DNA of 64,000 nucleotides from Alphaproteobacteria bacterium (lineage in GTDB: Bacteria; Pseudomonadota; Alphaproteobacteria; Rs-D84): contig JAVBUT010000002.1 of NCBI GenBank assembly GCA_031555055.1, positions 210,165 to 274,164 of the forward strand, given 5' to 3'. Shown piece after piece: positions 4,921 through 63,885 of this stretch (its first letter is position 1; each line of letters begins with the position of its first letter). The notes below the pieces were generated by a model. It was not told where the DNA came from, ran no database searches, and saw only the letters and a program-made list of their open reading frames with translations. The position numbers and the translations under genes are program-made.

Positions 4921-5216
4921 TGATTATTCTCTGTTTTTGGTTTTGGTAATATAATACATTAGTTGTATTTGTCAATAATATTATATACAGCACTTGATTT
5001 TTAAATTCATCACAGGTATAATTCGTGTGTTATGAAAAAATTGTTTGTTATCTTTACAACAACTACAACCCCTTTGGGGTGCTAGAATTCTATTGCGGTT
5101 TTTCGCATAAACTTTATAATTAATCAAAATAAAAATGAAAAAGTGTAAGTGAAAGTGCAGGTGAAGGCATCCGCCATACCAACGCGAATCACAGACACGA
5201 ACACGAAGGTTTTAAA

Positions 5217-6965
5217 ATGTCAGATAAAGATAAAAAATATCCAATCGAACTGGTGCGTCACAGTCTGGCGCACGTATTGGCGGCGGCGGTTCAGAAACTG
5301 TGGCCGGATGTAAAATTCGCGGGCGGGCCCGATATTGAAAACGGATTCTATTACGATTTTGATACCGATCATCGTTTTTCGGAAAGTGACTTTCCGGCAA
5401 TCGAAAAAGAAATGAAGGCGTTGATCAAATCGGATGGAATGTTCGTTCGCCGTGAAGTCTCGTTACAGGAAGCAAAAGAAATATTTGCGGCCCAACCGTT
5501 TAAAATGGAATGGCTGAACGAATATGACGCGGCAGGTGAAAAATTGTCGATCTATGAATTCCGTGGATTCGTGGACTTGTGCCGTGGGCCGCACGTAGAA
5601 TCATCCAAAGATTTGCCACGCGACGGATTTAAAATCCGCAGCGTTGCCGGTGCATACTGGAAAGGTGATTCCAAAAACAAAATGTTACAGCGTATCTATG
5701 TCGATGCATTTGCGTCCGCCGATGAACTGGACGCGCATCTGAAAATGATGGAAGAGGCCGCCAAGCGCGATCATCGCAAGATTGGCCGTGATATGGACTT
5801 GTTCCATTTCGAACCGGAATACGCGCCGGGCGCCGTGTTCTGGCACGATAAAGGTTATAAGATATATCGCCGTCTGATCGAATATGTGCGTATGCGCCAG
5901 GAAAAAGCCGGCTATTTGGAAATTTCAACCCCGGGGCTGATGGACCGTTCTTTGTGGGAAACGTCAGGCCACTGGGCGAAATATGGCGAACATAATTATT
6001 CCGGCAAGACCGAGGACGGTAAGCAGTTCTGTATAAAGCCGATGTCTTGTCCGGGCGGTATGCTGGTGTTTGGGCATGGTCTGACTTCTTATAAAGACCT
6101 GCCGATGTATGTCGCCGAATTCGGAAAAGTTCATCGGTACGAAGCCGCCGGTGGCTTGCACGGTATCATGCGTGTGCGCGAATTCACCCAAGATGATGCG
6201 CATATATTCTGTACGGAAAACCAGCTGGAAGATGAAGTTGTAAAGATTCTGCGCTTTATCAAAGATATTTATGGCAAATTCGGGTTCAAAAACGTCACCA
6301 TGAAACTGGCGACGCGCAAAGAATCGGAATTCCGTATCGGATCGGATGAAATATGGGATCGCGCCGAAGCCGCGCTTAGAAACGCGCTGGATAAAAACGG
6401 TATTGAATACGAAATCGCCGTTGGTGACGCCGCTTTTTATGGGCCCAAGATTGACAACTATCTGCGCGATTCGATCGGCCGCGTATGGCAGTGCGGAACA
6501 GTCCAGCTGGATATGAATCTGCCGGAACGCTTTGACTTGTCCTATATCGGCGAAGATGGTGAAAAGCACCGTCCGATTATGTTGCATCGTGCAATGCTGG
6601 GGTCGATTGAACGTTTTATGGGGATATTGCTGGAAGAGACCGGTGGAAACCTGCCGCTGTGGCTGTCGCCGGAACCGGTGGTCGTAACCCCGATTTCCGA
6701 AAAGTACAAAGACTATGCGGTCGAAGTGTACGACATGCTGCGTCATGCGGGCGTTTATGCGGGCCGCGATTTGCGCGACGAAAAAGTCAATTACAAGATT
6801 CGCGAACTGTCGCTGGCCAAGACGCCGATCATCGCAGTCGTAGGCGAGAAAGAGCAGGCGGATAAAACCGTAACTTTGCGCTGGCTGGGGTCTGATCAGC
6901 AAGACACAATGTCGCTGGATAAATTCATCGACATGATGAAGTCCGCAGTCCAAATGCCAGAATAA
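5217..6965 (+). CDS. thrS: threonine--tRNA ligase, apparently lacking the N-terminal TGS domain
   Basis: Begins at the editing-domain motif RHSLAHVLAAAVQKLWP and GFYYDFD. Class II catalytic and anticodon-binding regions follow. 582 aa versus about 640 in canonical ThrRS. Confidence 0.9.
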   Translation: MSDKDKKYPIELVRHSLAHVLAAAVQKLWPDVKFAGGPDIENGFYYDFDTDHRFSESDFPAIEKEMKALIKSDGMFVRREVSLQEAKEIFAAQPFKMEWLNEYDAAGEKLSIYEFRGFVDLCRGPHVESSKDLPRDGFKIRSVAGAYWKGDSKNKMLQRIYVDAFASADELDAHLKMMEEAAKRDHRKIGRDMDLFHFEPEYAPGAVFWHDKGYKIYRRLIEYVRMRQEKAGYLEISTPGLMDRSLWETSGHWAKYGEHNYSGKTEDGKQFCIKPMSCPGGMLVFGHGLTSYKDLPMYVAEFGKVHRYEAAGGLHGIMRVREFTQDDAHIFCTENQLEDEVVKILRFIKDIYGKFGFKNVTMKLATRKESEFRIGSDEIWDRAEAALRNALDKNGIEYEIAVGDAAFYGPKIDNYLRDSIGRVWQCGTVQLDMNLPERFDLSYIGEDGEKHRPIMLHRAMLGSIERFMGILLEETGGNLPLWLSPEPVVVTPISEKYKDYAVEVYDMLRHAGVYAGRDLRDEKVNYKIRELSLAKTPIIAVVGEKEQADKTVTLRWLGSDQQDTMSLDKFIDMMKSAVQMPE

Positions 6966-8526: not shown

Positions 8527-8612
8527 GGGCGGATCATATCCGCCCCTACGGTTTCGGTTTACGGTTCATGGCCAATGAAAAACAGGGCGCAAATATGCGC
8601 CCCTACTATAAT
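8527..8612. repeat. two taggggcg...cgcccctac palindromic hairpins (REP-like)
   Basis: Sequences taggggcggatcatatccgcccctac and cagggcgcaaatatgcgcccctac. Same motif recurs at 42.59, 53.09, 54.30 and 62.43 kb. Confidence 0.6.
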
Positions 8613-9597: not shown

Positions 9598-10767
9598 ATG
9601 ACAAAAAACATATATATGGACGCCGCCGCCAGCAGCCTGAAACCACAGTCTGTGATTGATGCGGAAATGGATTTTTTACAAAATCGTTATGCAAACGCCG
9701 GGCGTGGAATATGCGCGCGTGCATCCGCGGTTGACAATATGGTGGCGAATACCCGTGACGCGGTCCGTGATTTTATTGGCGCGTCAAAATCCGACCAAAT
9801 TATTTTTACATCCGGCACCACGGACGGGATGAATAAAATCGCCAAAATGTTAAAAACTTCGTTATCGTTTGACGACAATTCTTTGGTTATGGTGTCCGAT
9901 CTGGATCATCACAGCGCGCGCATGCCGTTTGAAGAAATGCGCCATGGTGCCGGACGTAATTTTGCTGTATGTCCATTGGACAAAGAATTTAACATTGATA
10001 CTGAAAATATCCCGGCCGCCGACGTATTCGTTATTACCGCTATGTCAAACGTGCTGGGGGCGCCCCAGGATGTAAAAAAAATTATATCTGCGGCCCGTGC
10101 AAAAAATCCAGACGTTATAACGGTTGTCGACGCCGCACAATATGTTGCGTATTTGCCAATTGACGTTGCCGATTGGGATTGTGACTTTTTATGTTTTTCC
10201 GGGCACAAGATCGGCGCGGATACAGGTGTTGGTATAATGTATATAAAAGAGCCGAAAAAATGGTTCCCGGCGGAACTTGGTGGGGGCATGGTGTCGCGAA
10301 TAACAGGATCGGACGGATCAAACGACAGCCGATGGATTTTTATGTCCGCACCAGAAAAATTCGAAGCGGGCACATTGCCGCTGACCCAGATCGCGGGGTT
10401 GGTTTCGGCGATAAGGAATCAGGAATCAGGAATCCGCCTCCGCAGATGCTTCGGCGGACAAGTCAGGGATCAGGGATCGAGAATTGTGAGGTATCTGCAT
10501 GATGAGTTGTCAAAAATTGATCGTATAAAAATAATTACCAAACCAGATGCGGCGGTTTTGACATTCGTGGTCGACGGTATGCATGTGCTGGATTTTGGGG
10601 CTTTGGTGGGTGCGTCGGGCGTATGTATCCGCGTTGGAAACATGTGTGCGTCATGGATACATCGTTTATTGGGACAAGACGGCACGATACGGATATCTTG
10701 TGGATTCTGGAACACAATGGATGAAGCAAACGATGTTATTGATATAATAAAAAAGATATTGAAATGA
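9598..10767 (+). CDS. sufS: cysteine desulfurase, class V aminotransferase (SufS/NifS-like)
   Basis: PLP-lysine motif SGHK, TSGTT and class-V pattern. Followed by DUF59 and SufE genes. Carries a composite repeat insert at 10415-10483. Confidence 0.8.
   Translation: MTKNIYMDAAASSLKPQSVIDAEMDFLQNRYANAGRGICARASAVDNMVANTRDAVRDFIGASKSDQIIFTSGTTDGMNKIAKMLKTSLSFDDNSLVMVSDLDHHSARMPFEEMRHGAGRNFAVCPLDKEFNIDTENIPAADVFVITAMSNVLGAPQDVKKIISAARAKNPDVITVVDAAQYVAYLPIDVADWDCDFLCFSGHKIGADTGVGIMYIKEPKKWFPAELGGGMVSRITGSDGSNDSRWIFMSAPEKFEAGTLPLTQIAGLVSAIRNQESGIRLRRCFGGQVRDQGSRIVRYLHDELSKIDRIKIITKPDAAVLTFVVDGMHVLDFGALVGASGVCIRVGNMCASWIHRLLGQDGTIRISCGFWNTMDEANDVIDIIKKILK
10415..10483. repeat. composite GAATCAG-heptamer/core element inserted in-frame in sufS; same core as the miaB copy
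   Basis: ggaatcaggaatcaggaatcc-gcctccgcagatgcttcggcggacaagtcagg-gatcagggatcgag. The reverse complement occurs at 26836-26896. Confidence 0.75.
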
Positions 10768-11078
10768 GTTTTACCAAAGATCAAATCATAAATGCGATAA
10801 AGACCGTGTATGATCCGGAAATCCCTGTTAATATATGGGATTTGGGGCTGATTTATGATATCGATATCAAAAACGATATGGTTGTTATAACCATGACTTT
10901 TACCAGCCCAACATGCCCCATGATGGAAGAGCTGTTGGCAGAGGTTAAAGAGAAAGTCGAAGCGGTCGCCGGAGTTGCCCAGGTGAAAATAGAACTGGTG
11001 TGGAATCCGCCATGGGATATTTCGCGCATGTCGGACGCGGCGCGTTTGGAATTGGATTTGACCGAAGCGGGTTGGTAG
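10764..11078 (+). CDS. DUF59/MIP18-family Fe-S assembly protein (SufT-like)
   Basis: TVYDPEIPVNIWDLGLIYD...TSPTCP motif. 4-nt overlap with sufS. Confidence 0.7.
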   Translation: MSFTKDQIINAIKTVYDPEIPVNIWDLGLIYDIDIKNDMVVITMTFTSPTCPMMEELLAEVKEKVEAVAGVAQVKIELVWNPPWDISRMSDAARLELDLTEAGW

Positions 11079-11103
11079 ATCAATAATTCGTATTACGAAT
11101 TTT

Positions 11104-11133
11104 GAAATGAAAAATGAAGAATGAAAAATGAAT
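11104..11133. repeat. ATGAAAA-type heptamer tandem array overlapping the sufE start
   Basis: aaatgaaaaatgaagaatgaaaaatgaat. Confidence 0.6.
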
Positions 11134-11493
11134 AATTATTCGGAAATAAAAAAATTATTATCAAATATTGACGATCCGGTTATGAAACTGGAAGTCGTCA
11201 TGGACATGGGAGGACAATTACCGTCAATCCCATCGGATGCAGCATGCACAGAGATTTATGGTTGCGCATCGCGCGTGCAGATATGTCGTGTCGGGAATAA
11301 TTTTTACGGTGCTGCGGACTCTGCCTTGGTGCGTGGGATTGTCGCGGTGATTTTGTCCATGGTAGACGGCAAAACGCCGGATGAAATCAGAAAAATCAAT
11401 CTGCGCGCAGAGTTTTCCGGCCTGGGTCTGAACCTGGGGGCTGGGCGCTTGAACGGTGTCAATTCTATGATTAGTTTTTTAGAAAATTTATGA
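11128..11493 (+). CDS. sufE: cysteine desulfuration protein SufE
   Basis: Active-site motif YGCASRVQI (GC.S.V) and SufE length. Confidence 0.8.
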   Translation: MNNYSEIKKLLSNIDDPVMKLEVVMDMGGQLPSIPSDAACTEIYGCASRVQICRVGNNFYGAADSALVRGIVAVILSMVDGKTPDEIRKINLRAEFSGLGLNLGAGRLNGVNSMISFLENL

Positions 11494-13840: not shown

Positions 13841-15607
13841 TTGAGAAAGATAGTAGAAAGATCCATGCTGGGCAAAGCGTGGGTTTGCGCGACAGAGTAT
13901 GAAGAAAACACGCCCAGCAGTACGATTTTAAAAGAAGACTTGTTAAAGAAAATATTGGAATCGCGCGGCGTTCGTAGCGGGGTCGATACCAGCAAGTTTT
14001 TAAATCCCAGCATAAAAGAATACATGCCCGACCCCAGCGTGCTGGCCGATATGGATTCGGCGGCGCGTATAATTGTCGACAATATTGTCGCCGGGCGGAA
14101 AATTGCCATATACGGCGACTATGACGTGGACGGAATAACGTCCAGTGCGATCATGGTGAAATATCTGCGTGCGGTTGGCGCAAACGTCGTATGGCACCTG
14201 CCAACGCGCGAAGGCGAAGGGTATGGTCTGAACTGTGATGCCGTCAGTGCGATCGCCGCGGACGGGGTCAATCTGATCGTGACCGTCGATTGCGGAATCA
14301 GCGGCGTGGAAGAAATTGCGCTGGCTAAAAAACTGGGGCTGGATGTCGTTGTTACCGATCATCATTCGCCTGACGGGAATCTGCCGGCGGCCGACGCGGT
14401 CGTGAATCCCAAACGCCTGGACGATACGTCCGGGATGTCTTATCTGGCGGGTGTCGGCGTGGCTTTTATGACACTGGTCGCCGTGAATAGAGAACTGAAG
14501 TCCAGAAATGACGATAAATTCCAAATTCCGCATTCTTTATTTTTGATCGATCTGATGGATTTGGTCGCGCTGGGGACGATATGCGACACAATGCCGTTGG
14601 TGGGACTGAATCGTGCGTTTGCTGCGACCGGCCTGAAAGTTCTGGCCAAGCGAAACAATGTCGGCCTGCGCGCGTTGATGGATATTGCAGTAATTAAATA
14701 GCAGACCAAATACAGCGTGATGTTCGCGCTGGGGCCGCGGTTGAATGCGGCGGGCCGTCTGGATTCTGCGGCGCCGGCGCTGGAACTGTTGTTGACGGAC
14801 AATATACTGGTCGCGAACGATCTGGCGGCAAAATTAAACCGCATGAACCAGGAACGCATAGATGTTCAAAATGCAATCATGATAAGTGCGACCGAAATGG
14901 CCCAGAAATGTTGCGCTTTGGGAAAATGCAGCCTGTTCGTATGTGGCGATAACTGGCGCACTGGGGTTATGGGGATCATCGCCGGGCGGCTGAAAGACAA
15001 ATATAACCTGCCGACATGTGTTGCGACGAAATGCGACGGCGTGATTGACGGGTCCGGCCGTTCTATACCGGGCGTCGATCTGGGGCGCATTGTCCATGAT
15101 GCGGCGGCATTGGGAATAATCAGCGGCGGCGGCGGCCATGCGGCGGCGGCCGGGTTTACTTTGCCGGCAGAGAATGAACAGAAATTCTGCGAATTTTTGG
15201 AAAAATCCGTCTTGGCGCAGTTGGATGGGAAAATTCCGGAAAACGAAACGGTTGTTGATGCCGAAATGGATGCCGGTGGCGCAACGATGAAGCTGGTGGA
15301 ACAACTGGCGGAACTGGAACCGTTCGGCCAGGCCAATCCGGAACCGACACTGGTACTGCGTGGCGGGACATTGGCCCACGCGACGATAATGGGCAAGGGC
15401 GGAACGCACTTGCGCGGATATATCAATACAGGCAACGGATCGCGCCTGGCGTTTGTGGGATTTAATATGGTCGGGACGCCGGTCGGTGATTTTTTGCTGG
15501 ACGATGCGCATACAAATACTAAAATGATGATGTTGGGAAAGTTAAAGGAAAACGAATACCAAGGCCGCGTATCGGCACAGTTCATTTTGGAAGACTTGGC
15601 AATTTAA
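13841..15607 (+). pseudogene. recJ: recJ single-stranded-DNA exonuclease interrupted by an in-frame TAG at 14699-14701 (two ORFs 13841-14701 and 14717-15607 in the same frame)
   Basis: DHH motifs (YGDYDVDG, DHH) in the first part. Conserved FALGPRLNAAGRL and DHHA1 region in the second part. The frames are identical and separated by a single amber codon. Confidence 0.6.
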
Positions 15608-15637
15608 TGAAGAATGAAAAGTGAAAAATGAAAAATT
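15606..15637. repeat. ATGAAAA-type heptamer array immediately after the recJ stop
   Basis: aatgaagaatgaaaagtgaaaaatgaaaaatt. Confidence 0.55.
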
Positions 15638-15685
15638 AAATTCATTTTGACTTAATGGTTTTTCAAAATAAAAAAAGGAACAGAT

Positions 15686-18321: not shown

Positions 18322-19680
18322 ATGAAAAAAAATATTCGGCGATTTTTTATTGCTGTTTCTATCTTATTAAATTTGTCCGCATGTGACCTGCAGCCAAAGA
18401 TTACCGCACTGCCGGATACGGTCGGTGACTTTATATCCACGCGGTATCCGGCATTGCTGGCGGATCCGACAACCCAGCCAGAAATATACGATTCCGCTGC
18501 GACCGATTACGGCGTTTATGCGTCTCCGGAACTGTACGGCACATCCGGTGAATCCAGCATGGATGATTATCTGATGTACGCCAGTGTGGACGATTACACA
18601 TTGCGGCCGCAACAGACCCAGGTTGTCCGGGTTCCGATTATCGAAACAAAATCCGGTCAGACGGTTATTGTCAGCACCCCCAGCCCAATGGACGATTATC
18701 TGATGGTGCCCGCGTACGAGCATGTTGTTCACGACACGGTCGAGGTAATTGTATCCAAAGGCGACACTCTGTATTCCATATCCAAGAAATATTCGACCAC
18801 GGTTGGCGAATTGGCGACGATGAATAAATTGTCCGCGCCATACGCGTTGTCGGTTGGCCAAAAGATAAAAGTTCCGGTGCTGAAGACTGTCCCGGTGATA
18901 GAGCCGGCACCGATCGTCACCGCCGCGCCGATCATGGCGACACCGGTCAAGGCAGAAGTAGTAGAAGTGACCGTTACCAAGGGCGACACATTGTATTCCA
19001 TGTCGCGCAAATATGCTTTGCCGGTCAATGATCTGGCGGTTATGAATAAATTAAAACCACCGTTTACGCTGTCTGTTGGTCAGAAATTAAAAGTGCCAAA
19101 AATAACGGATGTTGCAATGCCGGACAAGACAATCGTGCCGGTGCGAACCACGACTGTGCCGACATCGCCAATTGTCGCGGCATCGCCGACACCGGTGCCG
19201 AAAACGGTAACACCGATACCGGTCAGACCGATTGCAACGCCGGCGCCGGCAAAGGTATCCAGCGCGCCGACCGCGCCATTGCCTAAAATAACATCGCGGT
19301 CATCGTCAAAGTTTTCCTGGCCGGTGCGCGGAACGATATTGTCCGGATATGGCGCAAAATCGACAGGCTTGTTCAACGACGGAATCAATATCGCGGCCAG
19401 TGCCGGCACCAAGGTCGGTGCGGCTGAAAACGGCGTCGTCGCATATGCGGGCAATGAACTGAAAGGTATGGGTAACCTGGTAATCGTCCAGCATTCAGAC
19501 GGCTGGATGACAGTCTATGCGCATATGGACCAGATGTCCGTGCGACGCGGCGTCAAGGTTACCGTGGGTCAGAAAATCGGAACTGTCGGCAAGACCGGCA
19601 AGGTTGACCGTCCGCAACTGCACTTTGAAATCCGCAAGGGAACCAAGGCGTACGATCCGAATGCATATTTAAAGAAATAA
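18322..19680 (+). CDS. nlpD: NlpD-like lipoprotein with two LysM domains and a C-terminal M23 peptidase domain
   Basis: Lipobox LSAC. Two LysM repeats (VSKGDTLYSISKKY...GQKIKVP). C-terminal M23 fold (AYAGNELKGMGNLVIVQH...HFEIRKG). Confidence 0.8.
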   Translation: MKKNIRRFFIAVSILLNLSACDLQPKITALPDTVGDFISTRYPALLADPTTQPEIYDSAATDYGVYASPELYGTSGESSMDDYLMYASVDDYTLRPQQTQVVRVPIIETKSGQTVIVSTPSPMDDYLMVPAYEHVVHDTVEVIVSKGDTLYSISKKYSTTVGELATMNKLSAPYALSVGQKIKVPVLKTVPVIEPAPIVTAAPIMATPVKAEVVEVTVTKGDTLYSMSRKYALPVNDLAVMNKLKPPFTLSVGQKLKVPKITDVAMPDKTIVPVRTTTVPTSPIVAASPTPVPKTVTPIPVRPIATPAPAKVSSAPTAPLPKITSRSSSKFSWPVRGTILSGYGAKSTGLFNDGINIAASAGTKVGAAENGVVAYAGNELKGMGNLVIVQHSDGWMTVYAHMDQMSVRRGVKVTVGQKIGTVGKTGKVDRPQLHFEIRKGTKAYDPNAYLKK

Positions 19681-19800
19681 AATTAAAGACAATGGCACAT
19701 CTGGTGACGGGGCCGGTGGCTTATGTATGTTTAATACACAACGCCATCGGCCTCGCCATCATCTGCACCATTCTTTTTAATTTTAAACAGCAGAGTTTAA
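19681..19800 (+). repeat. family-C stop-codon-adjacent element, diverged copy, directly 3 prime of nlpD
   Basis: taaaattaaagacaatggcacatctgg...ggtggcttatgtatgtttaatacacaacgccatc...cattctttttaattttaaacagc. Homologous to 42437-42565 and 63758-63885. Confidence 0.6.
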
Positions 19801-26163: not shown

Positions 26164-27575
26164 ACAATCTCCCCGCGCAGTGACGATTTATTAGCAGCAG
26201 TGATTTTAATGTTTTGCAGGGGCGAATCATTAGTGTCGCAACACGCGCTTACGACCACCTGCTGCATATACGGGGTACGAAATATCAGATTATTTCCGGT
26301 TTTGTCGGGTCCTTCGGTCAGACATTCAAAAGTTTTTCCAACGCATGATTCGTTAAATTCGCGCTGCAGATCGTTCAGGTATCCGTCCAGAATTTTCAGA
26401 CGTTCGCGTTTTTCCGGTTCAGAAATCTGATCCTTCATCAGTGCCGCCGCGGTATGGGGGCGGGGCGAATATTTGAACGAATAAGAATTTATATAACGAA
26501 CGCGTTTTGCGATTTCCATGGTTTTTGCGAAATCCGCGTCCGTCTCGCCAGGGAATCCGACGATAAAGTCCGACGATATTTGGATGTCCGGCCGCGCCGC
26601 GCGCAAACGGTCCACAATATCAATATACAGTTCCAAAGAATAAGGCCTGTTCATGCGGGTCAGAACATTCTGTGATCCGCTTTGGATCGGCAGGTTTAAA
26701 AACGGCAGTAATTTTGGTTCCGTCCGGAACAGGTCGATCAGATCATCTGTCATCTCGGTCGGATAGCTGGAAGTGAATCTTATGCGCTGTATCTGGGGCA
26801 GGGTGGCGGTTTCTTTGATAAGATCGGATAATGTACTGATTTCTGATTCCTGACTTGTCCGCCGAAGCATCTGCGGAGGTGGATTCCTAATTCCTTTATA
26901 CCCGTTCACATTTTGCCCCAGGAAACAAATTTCGATCGCGCCGGTTTCGGCGGCATGGCGGACATCGCGCATAACGCCATCGAATGGTCGCGACAGTTCT
27001 GGTCCGCGCGTGTATGGCACGATACAGTACGTGCAGACGTGGTTACAGCCTTCTTGGATCGGGATATATGCGATGGCCGGCGATGATGACATTTGGGGCA
27101 ACTCGTCGAATTTTTCAAGCCCACCAAGATCGACGTTTAATAAACGTGTGTCCGGATTGTCGATAATTTCCGGCAATTTGTGATAACTCTGTGGTCCCAA
27201 GACAAAATTTAATTCTGGTATTCTGCGGAATGCGTCGGCGCCGCTTTCGCGTGCGACACATCCGACAATGCCAAACAGCGCGTCCGGCTTTTTTGCCAAA
27301 CGGATTCGCCCCAGTGCACTGAACACTTTATTGGTCGCTTTTTCGCGCACGGAACAAGTGTTCAGAATAATCAGATCGGCATTCACGATTTCTGATGTTT
27401 CCGTCCAGCCGCGTTGTATTAACATGCTTGCGATACGCTGGCCGTCATAGACGTTCATCGCACAACCAAAGGTTTGGATGTGGAACAAATTCCCCGCCTG
27501 GGGCGGGGTGCCGTCGCCGTTATGCGTGGCGGGGTGGGTTAAAGAATTCGAAATATCCAATTTGTTTTTTTTCAT
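26160..27575 (-). CDS. miaB: tRNA-2-methylthio-N6-dimethylallyladenosine synthase MiaB (radical SAM)
   Basis: MTTase N-domain FHIQTFGCAMN, radical-SAM CNHVCTYC and TRAM domain. In-frame composite repeat at 26836-26896 encodes GIRNPPPQMLRRTSQESEI. Confidence 0.85.
   Translation of the reverse strand: MKKNKLDISNSLTHPATHNGDGTPPQAGNLFHIQTFGCAMNVYDGQRIASMLIQRGWTETSEIVNADLIILNTCSVREKATNKVFSALGRIRLAKKPDALFGIVGCVARESGADAFRRIPELNFVLGPQSYHKLPEIIDNPDTRLLNVDLGGLEKFDELPQMSSSPAIAYIPIQEGCNHVCTYCIVPYTRGPELSRPFDGVMRDVRHAAETGAIEICFLGQNVNGYKGIRNPPPQMLRRTSQESEISTLSDLIKETATLPQIQRIRFTSSYPTEMTDDLIDLFRTEPKLLPFLNLPIQSGSQNVLTRMNRPYSLELYIDIVDRLRAARPDIQISSDFIVGFPGETDADFAKTMEIAKRVRYINSYSFKYSPRPHTAAALMKDQISEPEKRERLKILDGYLNDLQREFNESCVGKTFECLTEGPDKTGNNLIFRTPYMQQVVVSACCDTNDSPLQNIKITAANKSSLRGEIV
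26836..26896. repeat. composite GAATCAG-heptamer/core element inserted in-frame in miaB (reverse orientation of the sufS copy)
   Basis: ctgatttctgattcctgacttgtccgccgaagcatctgcggaggtggattcctaattcc. The core matches 10426-10462 with 1 mismatch. Confidence 0.75.
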
Positions 27576-27779: not shown

Positions 27780-28637
27780 TTACTTTATTTTTACGATATT
27801 TAATAGCAATTGTGTGTGACCGATATCGTCGGTTGCTTGTTTGAATTTTTCAGCGTGCACGCCGAATTTATTCAATCGTTTGTTCATATACGCCAGTGGG
27901 AAATAATCTTCGGAAATCATAAGCATCAGTTTTCCATTCGGCTTTAAAAATTTAAGTCCATGCGTCACGTAATTTTCATGCGCCTTGTAATTCGGATCCG
28001 ATACCATGTAATTCATCAGTTCAGACCTGTTAGTATGCGCATGATCCAAATATGGCGAGTTCCAAAATATCAGGTCGAATTTCTGACCGATTTTTATGCA
28101 TCCGAACACATCGCTTTGGACACATGATATTTTTTTATCCAATCCGTGTATGTGCACGTTTTCGGCGCAATTTTTAACAGCCGGCATTGATATATCAGCA
28201 CACAGTACGCGCGATAAATCGTATTCCAAACATGCCGATATTCCCATAACTCCGGTGCCGCATCCCATATCTAGCATAGCCTGGCCAGGCTTTAAGGGTA
28301 ATGCCGGCACAATCGCCGTCGCGCAACGCCAAGTCAATGGTGAAAACACATTTTTATGCAGGACAAATTCCCGTCCTAGGGTATTAAACTTTTTTGGAAA
28401 ATCGCCATCTTGGGATTCGACGAACATCTGCTCGCACAGGCCAAAGTTTTTATTGGTTAATTTTTCTTCCCGAATGGACTGTTGGATTTTTCGCAACGGC
28501 GCTGTTTCTTCGTGTAATTCTTGGGTATCCCAATCCTGTGGTGCACTGGATGCATAAGAATGCTGGTTGCGTAATGGGGTGGTGCTGCATTGTTCCTGAA
28601 GTCTTTGTGATGCGATTAAGTCTTTTGCTGATAACAT
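27780..28637 (-). CDS. class I SAM-dependent methyltransferase, small-domain (RsmC/PrmC-like, NPPY-type motif NSPY)
   Basis: Motif I LDMGCGTGVMGI. Motif IV DLIFWNSPY. AGGAGA RBS. Start chosen at MLSAKDL. Confidence 0.55.
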   Translation of the reverse strand: MLSAKDLIASQRLQEQCSTTPLRNQHSYASSAPQDWDTQELHEETAPLRKIQQSIREEKLTNKNFGLCEQMFVESQDGDFPKKFNTLGREFVLHKNVFSPLTWRCATAIVPALPLKPGQAMLDMGCGTGVMGISACLEYDLSRVLCADISMPAVKNCAENVHIHGLDKKISCVQSDVFGCIKIGQKFDLIFWNSPYLDHAHTNRSELMNYMVSDPNYKAHENYVTHGLKFLKPNGKLMLMISEDYFPLAYMNKRLNKFGVHAEKFKQATDDIGHTQLLLNIVKIK

Positions 28638-28650
28638 AACTTCTCCTGTT

Positions 28651-29016
28651 TTATTTCCCGTTGCGCATATTTTCGGTACATATTTTTTCAGCGGTCTTGT
28701 GATATGATAATATTTTTTCGCGCGCGGCAAACGCGTTTTCTTTTGTCATTTCTATTTTTTTGCTTTTAATATTATACACGGTTTCATCGTTCAGCAGACT
28801 GTTGTAAAAATGGTATTTGCTAACCAGTAAATCACGCACGCTGGTCCAGCATATGGCGGATTCATCGTTTGGATTGCAGTCACTGCATAATTTGGTGTTG
28901 AAGAATTCTGACAGCGCCGGTTCGCCGAATTCGCTGCGTGGGCAGTTGATTTCTGTGTATGGCGGTTTATTGTACATTCTGCGTGTCATGCGTACAAAAT
29001 TTTCTGGGCTTAACAT
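28651..29016 (-). CDS. hypothetical protein with C-x16-C-x2-C-x10-C spacing
   Basis: ORF begins 4 nt after the gatB stop. No recognisable domain. Confidence 0.3.
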   Translation of the reverse strand: MLSPENFVRMTRRMYNKPPYTEINCPRSEFGEPALSEFFNTKLCSDCNPNDESAICWTSVRDLLVSKYHFYNSLLNDETVYNIKSKKIEMTKENAFAAREKILSYHKTAEKICTENMRNGK

Positions 29017-29019
29017 TTT

Positions 29020-30558
29020 TTATCCATTTAGTTTTTTGGTTAGTATTTCAGATACGATCGCCGGGTTTGCTGAACCGCCGGTGGCCTTCATAACATTGCC
29101 GACAAAGAATCCCATCAGGCCCGTCTTGCCGGCGCGGTATTGTTCAACCTGACCGGCATTGGCGGCGATGACATCATCGATCGCTTTTTCAATCGCGCCG
29201 GTATCGGTGATCTGCTTCATGCCGAATTTATCGGCGATCTGTTTCGGTGTTCCCGGTTCGTTATCCAGCATTTTGATAAAGATTTCTTTGGCCTGTTTAC
29301 CATTGATTTCGGATGCCGCGATCATATCGACCAGTTCGGCCAGATCGGATGGTTGAATTATACGAGGATAATTACTCCCCCCAAGGGGGGAGTAATTTGC
29401 CTGGTTGCCAAGCACAAAATGTTCCGGATGCGCGAACAGTTCAGAAATCATCCAGTTTGCGATCGGTTTTGCGCGGGCGGGTTTATCACCCACAGCCGCG
29501 TCGAACCATTTTGAAATATCGACAGTCTCGGTCAGGCGCGTTGCGTCATATTCAGATAAACCCCAGGCAGAGATGTATCGAGCGCGTGTCGCCGCCGGCA
29601 ATTCCGGCAGTGTTTCGCGTATGCGTTCAATGGTCTCTTCGCTGATGATCAGCGGTAATAAATCCGGGTCCGGAAAGTGACGGTAATCCAACGCGTCTTC
29701 TTTGGATCGCATTACGGATGTTGTGCCTGTGTCCTGATTATATCGCATTGTATCTTGGGAAACGGTACCGCCGGATTCCAAGATTTCGATTTGGCGGCGT
29801 GCCTCAAATTCAATTGCGGTTTTAATAAATTTACACGACACCATGTTTTTGGTTTCCGTGCGGGTGCCAAATTTTGTGTCGCCGACACGACGGACCGATA
29901 CATTGACGTCGGCACGCATGGAACCTTCTTCCATGTTGGCGTGGCTGACACCCAATGCGCGTGCGATTTCGCGAATCTGGCGCAGGTATCTTTCTGCTTC
30001 GTCCGGTGATGTTATGTATGAATTTTCTTGCGCGTTTTTAACGTCCAAAAATGTCACGATTTCCAACAGCGCGACCCCGGTGCGGTTATAATCTGCAAAA
30101 GATTTTGTCGGATGCGCGTCATGTTTCAGTTTTCCCGCGTCCTGTTCCAAGTGTGCGCGTTCGATCAGAATTTTTTTAGGTTTACCGTCGTCGCCCAAGA
30201 TTTCGACATGGCCACGGCCAACGATTGGCGGTGCGTCTGCGGGTTGCGTGATTTGGTAACCCTGGGGCAGGTCGGGGTAAAAGTATTGCTTGCGCGTGAA
30301 TATCGACCGGCGCGTGATGTCGGCATTTATCCCCAGTCCGAATCGAATTGCCTGTTCAACACAGAATTCGTTCAACACGGGCAGCATGCCAGGCATTGCA
30401 ACGTCAACCATGGAAACTTGGGTATTTGGTGCAATGGTTGGGTTATAGTCCGCGCTGGCCCCGCTGAATACTTTGGCATTGGACAATACTTCGATATGCG
30501 TTTCCAGCCCGATTACCAATTCCCAATCGCCCGTTTTCCCCGTAATTATGTATGTCAT
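29020..30558 (-). CDS. gatB: Asp-tRNA(Asn)/Glu-tRNA(Gln) amidotransferase subunit B
   Basis: N-terminus W.LVIGLETHIEV and GatB/YqeY C-terminal region. Contains an in-frame 29-bp perfect palindrome at 29369-29397. Confidence 0.9.
   Translation of the reverse strand: MTYIITGKTGDWELVIGLETHIEVLSNAKVFSGASADYNPTIAPNTQVSMVDVAMPGMLPVLNEFCVEQAIRFGLGINADITRRSIFTRKQYFYPDLPQGYQITQPADAPPIVGRGHVEILGDDGKPKKILIERAHLEQDAGKLKHDAHPTKSFADYNRTGVALLEIVTFLDVKNAQENSYITSPDEAERYLRQIREIARALGVSHANMEEGSMRADVNVSVRRVGDTKFGTRTETKNMVSCKFIKTAIEFEARRQIEILESGGTVSQDTMRYNQDTGTTSVMRSKEDALDYRHFPDPDLLPLIISEETIERIRETLPELPAATRARYISAWGLSEYDATRLTETVDISKWFDAAVGDKPARAKPIANWMISELFAHPEHFVLGNQANYSPLGGSNYPRIIQPSDLAELVDMIAASEINGKQAKEIFIKMLDNEPGTPKQIADKFGMKQITDTGAIEKAIDDVIAANAGQVEQYRAGKTGLMGFFVGNVMKATGGSANPAIVSEILTKKLNG
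29369..29397. repeat. perfect 29-bp palindrome inserted in-frame in gatB (encodes NYSPLGGSNY)
   Basis: taattactccccccaaggggggagtaatt. Confidence 0.7.
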
Positions 30559-30613: not shown

Positions 30614-30689
30614 GGCTGGGTAGCTCAGTTGGTAGAGCAAGGGACTGAAAATCCCTGTGTCGGCGGTTCGATTCCGTCCCCAGCCACCA
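30614..30689 (+). tRNA. tRNA-Phe (anticodon GAA)
   Basis: GGCTGGG acceptor, TAGCTCAGTTGGTAGAGC D-arm, anticodon loop CTGAAAA, GGTTCGATTCC T-arm, CCA encoded. Confidence 0.9.
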
Positions 30690-30892
30690 GATTATAACAA
30701 AATGTTCCGTAAGGGACATTTTTTTATAATCTTTGTTGTTTTGTACCATTAAACCGCCCACAGGGATTTGAAGGTACTGAATCCGAGCGTATAAGCACAC
30801 AAAAATTTTCGTTGTTAGAAAATTTTTGATGTGCGCATAGTCGAGGATACGCGGCTCACTTGATAAATATTTACACTTGGGACCAAGCGAGC

Positions 30893-30935
30893 GAAAATCC
30901 CTGTGTCGGCGGTTCGATTCCGTCCCCAGCCACCA
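30893..30935 (+). repeat. direct duplicate of the 3 prime 43 nt of tRNA-Phe (anticodon loop to CCA); att-site remnant
   Basis: gaaaatccctgtgtcggcggttcgattccgtccccagccacca is identical to 30647-30689. Confidence 0.8.
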
Positions 30936-32521: not shown

Positions 32522-32815
32522 TTATTCATCCATTACCTTGGGCACGGCGAAGTATCCGCGGGATGTGCCGGCGTTGTCCGGCGTGCTTTTTAAAACCGCG
32601 TCGCGGATATTGCCGTCGGTGACGATATCGGCGCGGGTCGGTGCGGCGTGTTGGGCCGGGGTGAACATGGGTTCAATACCAGTTGTATCGATTTTTTTCA
32701 ACATGTCCATCCAGCCGAAAACTTGATCAATGTTCATCTCGGCCAATTTATCATCCGGGATTTCAATCCGGATCAGCGATGTGAATTTTTGCAATTGCTC
32801 TTTGGTGAATGCCAT
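32522..32815 (-). CDS. gatC: Asp/Glu-tRNA amidotransferase subunit C
   Basis: 97 aa, begins MAFTKEQLQKF. Immediately upstream of gatA. Confidence 0.75.
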   Translation of the reverse strand: MAFTKEQLQKFTSLIRIEIPDDKLAEMNIDQVFGWMDMLKKIDTTGIEPMFTPAQHAAPTRADIVTDGNIRDAVLKSTPDNAGTSRGYFAVPKVMDE

Positions 32816-32865
32816 TTTTATTACTCTGTATTTGCTATTTGGTAAAATTGTCATATAATGATACT

Positions 32866-33345
32866 ATGATTTTGGCAGATTTCAAGGATTTTCCCCGACA
32901 GGGTCGGGTTATTGGAATAGACTGGGGCGCGCGACGTATCGGCGTCGCGGTGTCTGACGAATCTCGCGAATTTGTGTTCACGCGGGACGTGATAACAATC
33001 AGGAATCGGGAATCCACCGTTGCCAAGGCTTTGGCGGACAAGCCAGGAATCGGTGAAATTATAAAATTGGTAAAATCCGAAAAAATCGTCGGGATAATAA
33101 TCGGCTTGCCGGTGCATGCCGACGGGACGGACTCGGCGACGACAAAAATGGTTCGCGAATTCGCGGACGAATTGTCCGGTCAGACGGATTTGCCGGTCGT
33201 ATTTATCGAAGAGAATTTAACATCGGTCGCCGCAGCGGAGAGGAGTCAGGAGTCAGGAATCAGGAACAAGAATTTTTCGATTGATTCAGAGTCTGCGAAA
33301 ATAATACTGGAAAACGCAATCGCGATGATACGACGAATGGGATAG
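32866..33345 (+). CDS. ruvX: YqgF/RuvC-like Holliday-junction resolvase / pre-16S rRNA nuclease
   Basis: Motifs GIDWGARRIGVAVSD and IIGLP. Two in-frame heptamer triplet inserts at 32996-33017 and 33239-33267. Confidence 0.75.
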   Translation: MILADFKDFPRQGRVIGIDWGARRIGVAVSDESREFVFTRDVITIRNRESTVAKALADKPGIGEIIKLVKSEKIVGIIIGLPVHADGTDSATTKMVREFADELSGQTDLPVVFIEENLTSVAAAERSQESGIRNKNFSIDSESAKIILENAIAMIRRMG

Positions 33346-39839: not shown

Positions 39840-40739
39840 ATGTTTCGTAAAATTTTGATGGCCGCAATGTTCGCAACAGCCGCAGGATACTGCTTTGCGG
39901 CGGATACCGGACTGCCCCAGGTCGTCACATCCGAAGTGTTTTATACCCAAGAAAAATCCGTAAACGAAAACACAGATTATAACACCTATGAAACAAACTA
40001 TGTCGCGCCGGCACCACACGCAGTGCCGACATGGCCGATCGTTGGCACGGACGCGGACACCGCTGTTTCTTGCGGTGCGGGCGGAAATACGGGCGGATGC
40101 GCTGATGACAATATAAAAATAGTTTCTAAAATCGGCGCCGATCTGGTTGTTGAAAATAATTTTAACTTGGGCGGTCACCGCGGTAATGGTGATGGCTGGT
40201 CTGGCGGGGCGAACATGCTGCACGGATTACAAGTGCCGGCCGGATTCGACGACGAATGCAATTCCAGATCGGAAATGCCGCTGATGGGTCGTGAAATGCT
40301 GGAAGACGACGGTGGTGAAGTTCTTGCCGTATCGCGCAGTGCACGCAAAAAATGCGGCAATGCTGGTTCCAATGGGGGTGGCATGACGGGCAAAATGATA
40401 ATCGAAGAAGAAAAAGTAACGGATTACATGGAAATTGCGGTTGATCAGTCCGCCGACGCCGAAGCGCCAAAAGCAATGCAGGACCAGGTTCGTTCATGGG
40501 TTGTGGCATCTGGTCAGACGTTGCGCGAAGTTTTGCAAAACTGGTGCGACAAAGAAGGTTGGGACCTGGTTTGGGCGACACCGCGCGAATACCCGATAGA
40601 GGCCAGCGCCGTATTCAAAGGACGTTTTGTTGATGTGTCCAGTGCACTGGTTCGCAACTTTGGTCGCGCAACACCGGTGCCGTATGCGAAATTCTATAAG
40701 GGAAACCGCGTGCTGGTCGTGTCTACAACCGAAGAATAA
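39840..40739 (+). CDS. TcpQ/PilL-like (type IVb pilus secretin partner) exported protein
   Basis: Signal peptide. C-terminal GQTLREVLQNWCDKEGWDLVW...KFYKGNRVLVVS matches the TcpQ/PilL C-domain pattern (…TLR..L..W...AGW…FY.NRVL.V). Confidence 0.5.
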   Translation: MFRKILMAAMFATAAGYCFAADTGLPQVVTSEVFYTQEKSVNENTDYNTYETNYVAPAPHAVPTWPIVGTDADTAVSCGAGGNTGGCADDNIKIVSKIGADLVVENNFNLGGHRGNGDGWSGGANMLHGLQVPAGFDDECNSRSEMPLMGREMLEDDGGEVLAVSRSARKKCGNAGSNGGGMTGKMIIEEEKVTDYMEIAVDQSADAEAPKAMQDQVRSWVVASGQTLREVLQNWCDKEGWDLVWATPREYPIEASAVFKGRFVDVSSALVRNFGRATPVPYAKFYKGNRVLVVSTTEE

Positions 40740-40743
40740 ATTA

Positions 40744-40773
40744 AATGAAAAATGAAAAATGAAAAGTGAAAAA
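40744..40773. repeat. ATGAAAA-type heptamer array between the TcpQ-like gene and the secretin gene
   Basis: aatgaaaaatgaaaaatgaaaagtgaaaaa. Confidence 0.55.
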
Positions 40774-40828
40774 TAATTCCTTGGTCATTGCATTTTTCCA
40801 AAGACTTGAAACACATAGGTGAGAGAAT

Positions 40829-42436
40829 ATGTACAAGATATTAAAAGTACTTTTCATTTTTAATTTTTCCTTTTTCATTTTGACTGGGTGCGTAAAGAAG
40901 GAATCCGCCCAGGTGGCGTCCGCCGTCGACCAGGACTTTGTCAATGCGCACGATGCGTTCGAAATGGCGAAAAATCCGCGCGCCAAGGTTACCAGCACCG
41001 ATACCGTGTCAATGTCCGAAGGTGTTTGGCTGGGGGCGAAATCCACTTTGCTGGAACATAAAAACAATTTGCCGGGCACATACGAAAATGACACAGGTGT
41101 GACAATCCTGTTGAATGAGCCCGTATCGTTACAGGTTTTGGCCAACAATATTTCATCCATAACGAATATTCCTGTCAAAATCGACAGCCAGGTAAATACT
41201 GAAAAATTAAAAAAGACCATGAATATTGCCTATACCGGCAAGTTGTCTGGTTTGCTGTCCCAGGTTTCGACAGATCTGGATTTGTTGTGGTATTACGACA
41301 AAAGCTCTATCGTGTTTTATGAAACGGAAACAAAAACATTCACACTGTATGCGCTGGGGACGGATGTCGCGTACCAGTCTGTAATCCGTACGGATGACGG
41401 CAACGGCGTTTCATTGGAATCTAATTTAAAAGAATGGGAAGAAGTCGAACGCACGATCGGATCGATTGTCGGCAAAACAGCGAATGCAAACTTTACCGTA
41501 TCTAAAAGCTTGGGCACGATCACGGTTACCGCGCCGCCTTCGATCCAGCACCGCGTCAGCGAATACATCGCACGCCAGAACAAGCGTTTGTCCCAGCTGG
41601 TGACGATCGACGTAAAGGTTCTGCAGGTGTCCATGAACAACAACACCGCGTTTGGCCTGAACTTGGCGATGGCGATTAATTCTGCGGCGGGTCTGAATAT
41701 CGTTGCGAATCCGAAAAACAATCTGCAAACCACCGAAGCCAGCACAATGAATGTCGCGGTGCTGTCGGGATTGTCATTTGCGGACGCTGCAGGCAAGGTT
41801 CCGGCAGGCGCTACACCGGACCAGATCAATTCGGGCAGTCTGAAAAATATCGCAGGAACTGATGCGCTGATCAGTGCGCTGGCCAAGCAAGGCAAAATAT
41901 CGCTGGTGACGAACGTTGGGGTTACGACACGCAACAACCGCGTCGCCCCGGTCAGCAACACCCGCACAACCGGATATATCAAACGTTTTGAATCACGCAA
42001 TTTTACAACTGTCGAATCCAGCACTGTGGACCAGGATGATTTGGAAACAGGATTCAGCATGCAGCTGTTGCCTAATGTTCTGGAAAATGGAAAAATCTTG
42101 TTACTGTTCAAAATGTCGATTCGTGAACTGTTGCAGATGCAGACGCAGAAAATCGGCGAAGTGACATTGCAGTTGCCAGACGTAGAAGAGCGCAGCTTTA
42201 TGCAGGAAGTAATTATGGAATCCGGCCAAATGCTGGTTCTGTCGGGATTTGAACGTCAGACGAACAATGATACGCGTTATGGCTTGGGCGATCCGGACTT
42301 TATGGCGCTGTCGGGTTCGCGCGAATCCCAATCGACCAAGGACGTTTTGGTTGTCATCCTGACACCGCAAGTACTGGTCAGCCCGATGGATGCAGAGCGG
42401 TCTATCCAGCAAAACTGGGGCGCACCACTAAATTAA
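40829..42436 (+). CDS. lipoprotein secretin (type IVb pilus TcpC/BfpB-like, GspD/PilQ superfamily)
   Basis: Lipobox ILTGC. C-terminal secretin domain with conserved ending ...STKDVLVVILTPQVL. Confidence 0.65.
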   Translation: MYKILKVLFIFNFSFFILTGCVKKESAQVASAVDQDFVNAHDAFEMAKNPRAKVTSTDTVSMSEGVWLGAKSTLLEHKNNLPGTYENDTGVTILLNEPVSLQVLANNISSITNIPVKIDSQVNTEKLKKTMNIAYTGKLSGLLSQVSTDLDLLWYYDKSSIVFYETETKTFTLYALGTDVAYQSVIRTDDGNGVSLESNLKEWEEVERTIGSIVGKTANANFTVSKSLGTITVTAPPSIQHRVSEYIARQNKRLSQLVTIDVKVLQVSMNNNTAFGLNLAMAINSAAGLNIVANPKNNLQTTEASTMNVAVLSGLSFADAAGKVPAGATPDQINSGSLKNIAGTDALISALAKQGKISLVTNVGVTTRNNRVAPVSNTRTTGYIKRFESRNFTTVESSTVDQDDLETGFSMQLLPNVLENGKILLLFKMSIRELLQMQTQKIGEVTLQLPDVEERSFMQEVIMESGQMLVLSGFERQTNNDTRYGLGDPDFMALSGSRESQSTKDVLVVILTPQVLVSPMDAERSIQQNWGAPLN

Positions 42437-42565
42437 AATTAAATACAACAACGCATTTGGCGCGATTTGGGGTGGCTTATGTATGTTCAATACACTACGC
42501 CACCCCAAATCACACCAACTACATCATTCTCTTTAATTTTAACAGCCCGGTTTTGGGCCGTTTTT
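42437..42565 (+). repeat. family-C stop-codon-adjacent element directly 3 prime of the secretin gene
   Basis: taaaattaaatacaacaacgcatttggcgcgatttggggtggcttatgtatgttcaatacactacgccaccccaaatcac...cattctctttaattttaacagcccgg. 93% identical to 63758-63885. Confidence 0.75.
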
Positions 42566-42570
42566 AATTT

Positions 42571-42620
42571 AGTCAATAGTCTTTAGTCACTAGTAGGGGC
42601 GCATATTTGCGCCCGTATGT
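42571..42620. repeat. family-B half element (tagtca repeats + taggggcgcatatttgcgccc hairpin)
   Basis: agtcaatagtctttagtcactagtaggggcgcatatttgcgcccgtatg. Compare 62397-62544. Confidence 0.6.
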
Positions 42621-50731: not shown

Positions 50732-50759
50732 AAAAATCCGGCGGATGCCGGATTTTTTT
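50731..50759 (+). terminator. rho-independent terminator
   Basis: aaaaaatccggcggatgccggattttttt. Confidence 0.7.
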
Positions 50760-50761
50760 AA

Positions 50762-50985
50762 ATGAAAAATGAAGAATGAAAAATGAAAAATGAAAAATGA
50801 AGAATGAAGAATGAAAAATGAAGAATGAAAAATGAAAAGTGAGGAACAAAATAGAATATAAAAGTTATAAAAGTACAGAGTAAAGATATTATGAATCACT
50901 CTGTACTTTTGTAACTATTAAATAATAACTGTTGTGCGTAAAATCACTGATTACTTTTCATTTTTCATTCTTCATTTTTCATTTA
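50762..50985. repeat. composite palindromic heptamer element: 12 tandem ATGAA(A/G)A units, a central 13-bp-stem hairpin, then 4 inverted TTTTCAT units
   Basis: atgaaaa atgaaga ... x12 at 50762-50845. Hairpin aaaagtacagagt...actctgtactttt at about 50870-50912. ttttcatttttcattcttcatttttcattt at 50955-50984. Confidence 0.7.
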
Positions 50986-53069: not shown

Positions 53070-53083
53070 GTTTTTATTCCCGT

Positions 53084-53132
53084 AGGGGCGGCTGGAAAGC
53101 CGCCCAGGGCGCGTTTCCACGCGCCCCTACAA
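53084..53132. repeat. nested taggggcg...cgcccctac palindromic element in the parE 5 prime leader
   Basis: gtaggggcggctggaaagccgcccagggcgcgtttccacgcgcccctac. Confidence 0.6.
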
Positions 53133-54304: not shown

Positions 54305-54330
54305 GTAGGGGCGCATATTTGCGCCCCGGG
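54305..54330. repeat. taggggcgcatatttgcgcccc palindromic hairpin upstream of dnaJ
   Basis: gtaggggcgcatatttgcgccccggggc. Same core as 42.59 and 62.43 kb. Confidence 0.6.
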
Positions 54331-62396: not shown

Positions 62397-62544
62397 TAGT
62401 CATTAGTCTTTGGTCAATAGTCATTAGTAGGGGCGCATATTTGCGCCCATATGATTTCATATCATGGTTTACAAAACATGGCGAATTTACATTCGCCCCT
62501 ACTAATGACTATTGACTAATGACTATTGACTAACGACTATTGAC
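62397..62544. repeat. family-B composite palindromic element: tagtca-rich inverted arms around a taggggcgcatatttgcgccc hairpin
   Basis: Left arm gtcattagtctttggtcaatagtcattagtaggggcg versus right arm cgcccctactaatgactattgactaatgactattgac. Confidence 0.65.
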
Positions 62545-63757: not shown

Positions 63758-63885
63758 ATAAATTAAATATAACAGCGCATTTGGCGCGATTTGGGGTGGC
63801 TTATGTATGTTCAATACACTACGCCACCCCAAATCACGCTAACTACGCCATTCTTTTTAATTTATTACAGCCCGGTTTCGGGCAA
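63758..63885 (+). repeat. family-C stop-codon-adjacent element directly 3 prime of dnaN
   Basis: taaataaattaaatataacagcgcatttggcgcgatttggggtggcttatgtatgttcaatacactacgccaccccaaatcac...cattctttttaatttattacagcccggtttcggg. Followed by terminator at 63903-63930. Confidence 0.75.

Follow-up and report, generated by a model that had tools for sequence, protein, structure and literature searches.

The stretch analysed here, which we call the window, comprises 64,000 nucleotides of contig JAVBUT010000002.1 from an Alphaproteobacteria bacterium (assembly GCA_031555055.1), and carries on its minus strand, at 29020-30558, the gene gatB for subunit B of the Asp/Glu-tRNA amidotransferase, into which a short perfect palindrome is built. 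The open reading frame (ORF) of 512 aa is intact. Its product matches the solved GatB chains (1.4e-110 to PDB 3h0l_B) and contains the Pfam domains GatB_N (PF02934) and GatB_Yqey (PF02637), and gatB stands in gatC-gatA-gatB-miaB synteny in locus L001.

The palindrome, which we refer to as the hairpin-1 (hp1) module, occupies 29370-29397 on the minus strand. A preliminary description of this DNA had presented it as a perfect 29-bp palindrome from 29369 to 29397, but the t at 29369 is unpaired; the actual structure is a 13+2+13 hairpin of 28 nt, in which 13-bp arms, fully complementary, enclose a 2-nt centre that is not self-complementary (AATTACTCCCCCC-TT-GGGGGGAGTAATT on the coding strand, AATTACTCCCCCC-AA-GGGGGGAGTAATT on the plus strand). 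The same description had it translated in frame within the C-terminal region of gatB, and the ORF and its codons confirm this: AAT TAC TCC CCC CTT GGG GGG AGT AAT TAT is read as NYSPLGGSNY, GatB residues 388-397 (N388-Y397). Around hp1 extends a longer, imperfect palindrome (29362-29405, minus strand; 21-nt arms, complementary at 18 of 21 positions or 86%) that encodes roughly (N)QANYSPLGGSNYP. Its flanks on both sides match the inner-end consensus of the repeat family described below, GGnWAATT-ACT, as seen in locus L052 (ggggcaatt-ACT) and at the right end of locus L062 (reverse complement GGGCAATT-ACT), and this interval is probably the whole extent of element-derived DNA.

The gatB palindrome is not a chance feature, since 100 dinucleotide shuffles gave no match to the 28-mer and first-order Markov simulations of the window predict 0.13 perfect palindromes with arms of at least 13 bp per 64 kb. 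Five other perfect palindromes with arms of this length exist in the window, all terminator-like and flanked by A-runs and T-runs. The gatB hairpin does not have the character of an intrinsic terminator, as it lies inside the coding sequence and has no T-run. Folded in isolation it reaches -19.0 kcal/mol as RNA and -11.3 kcal/mol as DNA, and within a 91-nt context its RNA folding has a z of -3.4. There is no internal stop codon in hp1 in any frame: four of the six reading frames are open, and the other two are stopped solely by a TAA that borrows its last base from the AATT flank. A small hairpin upstream (GUGCUUGG-CAA-CCAGGCA), considered as a conserved second structure, was rejected because the equivalent pairing in the relative P0003 is in a different register.

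The codons concerned belong to a variable loop of GatB (29365-29421, minus strand; residues 380-398, HFVLGNQANYSPLGGSNYP) bounded by an invariant AHPE and by R399. Between AHPE and RIIxP, the GatB structures of Aquifex and S. aureus have no match for about 11 residues, a surplus that is clade-wide; the 120 closest relatives have GatBs of 506-508 aa. The palindrome therefore does not explain, as had been proposed, a length of 512 aa against about 480, a difference that is mostly due to features of the whole clade: the loop has 19 aa instead of the canonical 16, and the net gain is only 3 aa. Those 120 relatives, all uncultured Alphaproteobacteria or "Rickettsiales" metagenome-assembled genomes (MAGs) with 77-84% identity, provide the orthologue alignment that the preliminary description had called for, and 116 of them lack the palindrome segment, having instead a canonical loop of 15-17 aa (for example NWDVKNAVDTSNQGTA, NWDVKNAVDT..) which is itself hypervariable. 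Element-derived sequence has taken the place of most of the 16-aa clade-specific loop. Hence the notion of an in-frame palindromic insertion survives only in part: the sequence is repeat-derived and in frame, but it is not a simple insertion of some ten codons, the loop having been mostly replaced. A second insertion relative to the solved structures, of about 9 aa (..LDVKNAQENSYIT..; window 30010-30048, residues ~171-183), is common to all 19 aligned relatives and is thus clade-wide.

An AF2 model of the window GatB (mean pLDDT 68.5, moderate, with confident C-terminal helices) has a coil at residues 378-402, between helices 360-374 and 403-414, in which pLDDT falls below 50 for residues 382-397. 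NYSPLGGSNY sits in a surface loop that is absent from solved GatB structures. The C-terminal helical/YqeY region of GatCAB contacts tRNA. It is within this region (Pfam GatB_Yqey) that the insertion lies, and element-derived loops persist in several lineages, as would be the case if the Ser-Pro-Leu-Gly-Gly-Ser peptide had been co-opted to alter tRNA handling or a partner interaction of GatB, the palindromic DNA being merely its source. We find such a co-option very unlikely, because element-derived loops differ wholly between lineages in length (17-51 aa) and in sequence, because the canonical loop is hypervariable too and the model predicts disorder, and because conservation is seen at the level of the nucleotide palindrome and not of the peptide.

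Sequences like hp1 turn out to be dispersed. Scanning the pattern ACTCCCCCCNNGGGGGGAGT in one genome per GTDB species (185,579 species representatives) gave 53 loci, about 20 of which belong to a pair of MAGs from termite guts, WQUT01 ("Proteobacteria bacterium Cu122P5bin52") and WRJH01 ("Alphaproteobacteria bacterium Nt197P3bin78"), with smaller sets in Kiloniellaceae and Pseudomonadales MAGs. A separate scan of viral contigs gave three hits which, lacking the hp2 and G-run architecture described next, were set aside as unrelated. About 30 copies share one architecture. Around a 20-nt core, ACTCCCCCC-NN-GGGGGGAGT (hp1), a dispersed and modular unit is built that runs from an inner end, GGnWAAYT, through hp1 and a second hairpin (hp2; C-variable GC-rich hairpin-G) to an outer G-run, GTGGGGGGAC. 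We call this the C6-N2-G6 family. While hp2 forms a hairpin in every case, its sequence varies by copy (22 examples, most of which beat at least 95% of shuffles). Some units are single, others are paired head-to-head at a distance of 62 bp or tail-to-tail, and inverted doublets measure ~125-160 nt. The window palindrome shares its 24-mer ACTCCCCCCAAGGGGGGAGTAATT identically with loci L007, L028, L033, L041, L042, L049 and L052. No Rfam family matches the element in the window or in nine related loci. The product of window ORF 5139-6962 has 80% identity with a protein of WQUT01, and on the strength of this single protein the two MAGs may be related to the window organism.

Many of these units lie within reading frames. 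In WQUT01 and WRJH01, Pfam domains on either side of units or across them verify in-frame units in genes for a UvrD-like helicase, RecN, RecO (in both MAGs), a MiaB-like radical-SAM protein, TatD, YbeY-Lnt (lnt), MnmE, RNase HII (rnhB) and FtsJ/RlmE; an Fmt-like ORF with a unit was recognised only by visual inspection. At least 7 of 10 loci in WQUT01 and at least 3 of 9 in WRJH01 have copies within identified genes, and some copies in these MAGs are intergenic. All three phases of hp1 are used, giving SP(Q/L)GGS, TPP(K/L)GGV or LPP(W/R)GE.

The same GatB loop holds related elements in other lineages. Among the closest GatBs, loops are non-canonical only in the window, in P0003 (27 aa), in P0098 (47 aa) and in P0087 (17 aa), and related C-run/G-run hairpins are found in all four. 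P0003 has a full unit (ACTCCCCCCCTGCGGGGGAGT, CGGCGGCGCTACCTCGCGCGCCG and GTGGGGGGC in succession), P0098 has two units in inverted order, that is, an inverted doublet, and in P0087 the whole loop is replaced (AATT-GCCCCC-TGT-GGGGGGGC, then TGCCGCGCAAAGCGCGGC and TGAGGGGG). A fifth lineage, L062, was found in a Cubitermes gut metagenome (JGI20166J26741) through a gatB-anchored pattern scan of metagenomes, and its gatB holds a complete tail-to-tail doublet at the very loop position of the window palindrome: AACT-GTCCCCCCC-TT-GGGGGGGAT, hp2 and AGGGGGGGAC, then 15 nt, then GTCCCCCCACC, hp2 and G-ACTCCCCCC-AA-GGGGGGAGT-AATT, directly followed by GCC CAC GT. This doublet is open in five of six reading frames. 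The loop ends in ...GACTCCCCCCAAGGGGGGAGTAATTGCCCACGT (GGSNCPR) in L062 and in ...GGGGGGAGTAATTATCCTCGT (GGSNYPR) in the window; we had taken this similarity of junctions as a sign of one shared event, and downgraded it, since the inner-end consensus explains most of it. This termite-gut relative is much more distant than the others, at 56% identity in the GatB C-terminus and 61% in MiaB. Downstream of gatB, the miaB gene of L062 contains another complete in-frame tail-to-tail doublet of the family (1587-1712).

Recurrence across datasets also bears on the possibility that the palindrome is spurious, created in assembly or sequencing, for example as a fold-back chimera. Amplification can generate perfect palindromes as artefacts, and the window comes from a MAG-type record, on a single contig. 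Still, the gatB reading frame is intact and the loop holds related elements in datasets of independent origin (Logan SRR12977089 and SRR12977095, ENA ERZ27245259, JGI20166J26741), which makes an artefact extremely unlikely.

How the element came to be shared was examined with neighbour-joining trees of 37 GatB sequences, from which the loop had been removed (200 bootstrap replicates). P0098 groups with P0097, whose loop is canonical, with 93% support, the window groups with P0003, P0002 and P0087 with 62%, and the four element-bearing GatBs never form a single clade (0%, 0/200). We therefore rejected a single vertical insertion common to all element-bearing GatBs, L062 being moreover far distant. 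Because of these groupings and of the distance of L062, the GatB loop would have gained the element at least two to three times, or else element-bearing alleles would have moved laterally. Fourfold-degenerate sites among these gatB genes show 34-51% identity, which is near saturation.

Part of this picture could be accommodated by selection on a cis-acting structure of gatB mRNA or DNA, which might make translation pause between the helical and tail domains, act on RNase cleavage or message stability, or bind a protein. Both alone and in its context the RNA hairpin folds very stably, its arms are perfect although synonymous sites are saturated between lineages, and hp1-like hairpins return at the same GatB loop in five lineages. 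Nevertheless, gatB can do without any such hairpin, as 116 of the 120 close orthologues do, related MAGs have the same sequence at unrelated spots of at least ten further genes as well as between genes, and Rfam has no match for it. We thus regard a selected structure as very unlikely.

In our view, the window palindrome is probably a decayed remnant, a "solo hp1", of a mobile and modular palindromic repeat of the kind of the repetitive extragenic palindromic sequences (REPs) and of the Rickettsia palindromic elements (RPEs). This kind is already known, from RPEs and from intragenic REPs, while the C6-N2-G6 family itself appears to be undescribed. In the scenario that we propose, a tail-to-tail doublet would have landed in the one surface loop of GatB that tolerates extra residues, either in this lineage or in an allele gained later by recombination. 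Owing to the self-complementarity of hp1, an inverted doublet has its two hp1 copies in direct repeat, and slippage or recombination between them would remove all the intervening DNA and leave AATT-hp1-AATT, matching the observed 28-mer. Indeed, in a canonical unit GGGGGGAGT is followed by hp2, whereas in the window the inner-end AATT stands there instead, on both sides of hp1. In P0003 the outcome seems to have been the other one, with the left unit kept and the right one lost. As a last step, intrastrand template switching could have perfected the arms. The remnant would then persist since hp1 has no stop codon in the frame used and adds a flexible Ser/Pro/Gly stretch to a disordered loop; the gene being indispensable, only states that keep its reading frame would survive, with no need for a benefit to the host, and we infer that the window copy is selectively neutral.

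Several observations weigh against this interpretation. The deletion between hp1 copies is a route that we infer from anatomy alone. No target-site duplication is recognisable at the gatB element, and no transposase or nuclease is linked to it in the window. Searching for other copies, as had been suggested from the start, gave a divided answer: the 20-24-nt core is repeated in other genomes, but the window holds no other hp1 copy or C6-N2-G6 hairpin, and the exact 28-mer is found nowhere else in the collections scanned, JGI metagenomes included. None of the GTDB representative loci has AATT on both sides of hp1, and ~64 kb of flanks from three canonical-loop relatives contain no C6-N2-G6 hairpin. 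Given that neither the window nor these flanks hold another copy, the family is not visibly active in this genome and the window copy looks like a solitary relic. Finally, a very old neutral relic should have decayed, and yet the hp1 arms match the family consensus exactly despite the near-saturated synonymous sites of gatB. Because of this discrepancy, hp1 copies must be younger than the host splits, or homogenised by gene conversion, or under some constraint.

The uniqueness of the 28-mer and the lack of a second copy in the window are also what one would expect had the palindrome arisen in situ and without a mobile element, either by chance or because a quasi-palindrome in a hypervariable loop was made perfect by intrastrand template switching; the right-hand AATT extension, which mirrors the left arm, fits template switching too. 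However, chance predicts about 0.1 or fewer such palindromes per window, the 20-24-nt core is identical to that of a multi-copy family of other genomes, and full units and doublets of this family occupy the same gatB site in relatives. An in situ origin is therefore highly unlikely, and already largely refuted by the identity of the family core and by the doublet in L062.

If the palindrome is a remnant of a mobile repeat, the question arises of what moves the repeat, and the recO genes of WQUT01 and WRJH01 provide a lead. In both, an in-frame DUF559 (PF04480) endonuclease domain is bracketed by units, flanked by perfect 111-nt direct repeats in one case (L055, 365-718) and by 57-nt repeats with 95% identity in the other (L035, 3530-3880). 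The two embedded copies are ~70% identical to each other, and this nuclease domain, a candidate autonomous or mobilising partner of the repeats, is the only enzyme that we have seen physically between units. Elsewhere, the closest homologues of the domain stand alone as proteins of 107-265 aa, and all eight whose sequences were examined carry an N- or C-terminal stretch that resembles a translated G/C-run palindrome (SPLAGEG.., PLPQGERE). Two free-standing DUF559 genes from unrelated bacteria are likewise associated with palindromes: one lies between 35-bp inverted repeats of the GGGAGAGGG type (L064, 1-429) and the other has two CTCCCC-N5-GGGGAG hairpins at its 3' end (L063, 1874-1920). It is conceivable, though doubtful, that C6-N2-G6 repeats are non-autonomous partners of a DUF559 (Vsr-like PD-(D/E)XK) endonuclease and spread by a nuclease-triggered, homing-like gene conversion. 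No DUF559 gene is present in the 64-kb window, and the titles and abstract beginnings of the DUF559 papers listed reveal no connection between the domain and repeats. Were it true, homing would explain the repeated hits on the same GatB loop across saturating divergence, the partial loss of the target loop each time and the identity of hp1 across hosts, and intragenic palindromic repeats would gain a mobilising enzyme, which CGTC REPs and RPEs currently lack. A Y1 transposase is an alternative candidate mobiliser. The outer terminus GGGGACAG also fits the GGGGWSAS motif reported for the terminal inverted repeats of TIRYT transposases, a degenerate 8-mer and hence a weak lead.

Further features lie around gatB. 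A tRNA-Phe gene lies between gatA and gatB on the opposite strand (30614-30689), and 246 nt downstream there is a 55-nt duplicate of its 3' half, 93% identical (30881-30935); together they resemble the attachment-site scar of an integrated element. On the other side, two ORFs of 316 and 121 aa separate gatB from miaB (27780-29016) and have no counterpart in L001; with differing small ORFs in L001, L005 and L061, the gatB-miaB spacer is a variable spot. The listed miaB ORF has a 27-aa N-terminal extension (27495-27575) that is missing from the L001 and L005 orthologues, and its true start codon is probably downstream of the listed one.

Other repeats coexist with the gatB element in this genome. 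A second in-frame family, of ~60 nt (..AGGAATCAGGAATCCrCC..GCTTyGGCGGACAAGyCAGGrATC.., flanked by AATCAGG-like heptamers), has at least three in-frame copies: in a sufS-like ORF (ORF 9598-10767, repeat at 10417-10476), in miaB (26838-26894, minus strand), to whose product it adds 16-19 aa relative to the L001 and L005 orthologues, and in ruvX (ORF 32809-33342, repeat at 32998-33057), with a net gain of ~8 aa over the same orthologues. Its sequence is unrelated to the gatB element, and the separation that the preliminary description had drawn between the latter and the sufS/miaB element is thereby borne out. GTAG-tagged REP-like palindromes (GTAGGGGCGC...GCGCCCC) are a different family again, with 8 sites in the window where 2.3 are expected by chance (8540-8606, 42593-42602, 53082-53130, 54305-54314 and 62427-62502), several of which adjoin heptamer-periodic arrays (TAGTCAn or CTATnnn); their presence points to a REP family of the classical sort in this genome, and possibly to a REP-associated tyrosine transposase (RAYT). 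A palindromic repeat of ~105 nt (TAAAATTAAATA..GATTTGGGGTGGC..; 459-567, 19680-19783, 42433-42542 and 63757-63866) is present in at least three or four copies, with arms of 47-52 nt that are 79-88% complementary and the look of a miniature inverted-repeat transposable element (MITE). Tandem heptamer arrays, (AATGAAA/AATGAAG)n, are found at 50747-50865, 11078-11147, 15599-15640 and 40737-40778, in apparently intergenic sites and often beside terminator-like hairpins.

Rickettsia is the best-known source of palindromes that code for protein in frame, and intragenic REPs are scattered among other bacteria. To these our analysis adds a modular, GC-rich family that has spread into the housekeeping genes of gut-associated Alphaproteobacteria-like MAGs and whose window copy illustrates the shrinkage to a minimal perfect hairpin. 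It also adds the DUF559 nuclease embedded in recO as a concrete and testable candidate for the movement of such repeats. Palindrome stubs of this sort inflate the apparent variation in protein length and could mislead annotation, primer design and phylogeny.

The RPE families, palindromic repeats of ~150 bp found in frame in housekeeping genes (Ogata et al., 2000, as summarised in PMC10969869), are the closest analogy in behaviour: in both cases a palindromic repeat lies in frame in many unrelated housekeeping genes and adds a peptide, the protein survives, and the repeat then decays. Here the gatB frame is intact and the family is in frame in at least ten Pfam-verified MAG genes. Sizes are also alike, a full C6-N2-G6 doublet measuring ~125-130 nt (~42 aa), and this host, like Rickettsia, has more than one in-frame repeat family per genome. 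Copy number is one in the 64-kb window, and copies are numerous in WQUT01 and WRJH01. In contrast to RPEs, the C6-N2-G6 family is of unrelated sequence, GC-rich with C6/G6 runs and without a CGTC tag at its end, it is built of modules, one of them a second hairpin of variable sequence, its hosts are gut Alphaproteobacteria-like MAGs instead of Rickettsia, and the window copy has just 28-44 nt. The exact scan for the hp1 core among GTDB representatives returned no Rickettsia genome, a comparison by host and not with RPE consensus sequences.

Intragenic REPs with GTAG/CGTC tags are stem-loops of 20-40 bp, single or in head-to-head or tail-to-tail dimers, some of which lie wholly within ORFs, often of replication or repair genes, where they encode 20-30 extra residues; in related species, one gene sometimes carries different REPs at nearly the same position (Di Nocera et al., 2013, PMC3733652). 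Stem-loop size, single or dimeric arrangement, location inside ORFs and repeated use of one gene site are all shared with the gatB element, whose palindrome has 28-44 nt and whose relatives form head-to-head and tail-to-tail doublets. Unlike these REPs, the gatB element lacks a GTAG or CGTC tag, its ends being GGnWAATT-ACTCC... and ...GTGGGGGGAC, and a large share of the copies retrieved from termite-gut MAGs are intragenic. The inverted doublets of a short palindrome that fold into a long hairpin, and the conservation of the family across hosts, recall the REPIN-RAYT system and bacterial interspersed mosaic elements (BIMEs). REPINs, however, are essentially extragenic and defined by a cognate single-copy RAYT (a Y1 transposase), whereas the C6-N2-G6 family is not mainly extragenic. 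Compared with MITEs, the doublets are inverted repeats overall and have no consistent direct duplication at the junctions examined. For the deletion step alone, the analogy is with solo long terminal repeats, in which one terminal repeat remains after recombination between the two that bound the element; scale and type of element are different, and in our case 20-nt palindromes would act as direct repeats only through their self-complementarity.

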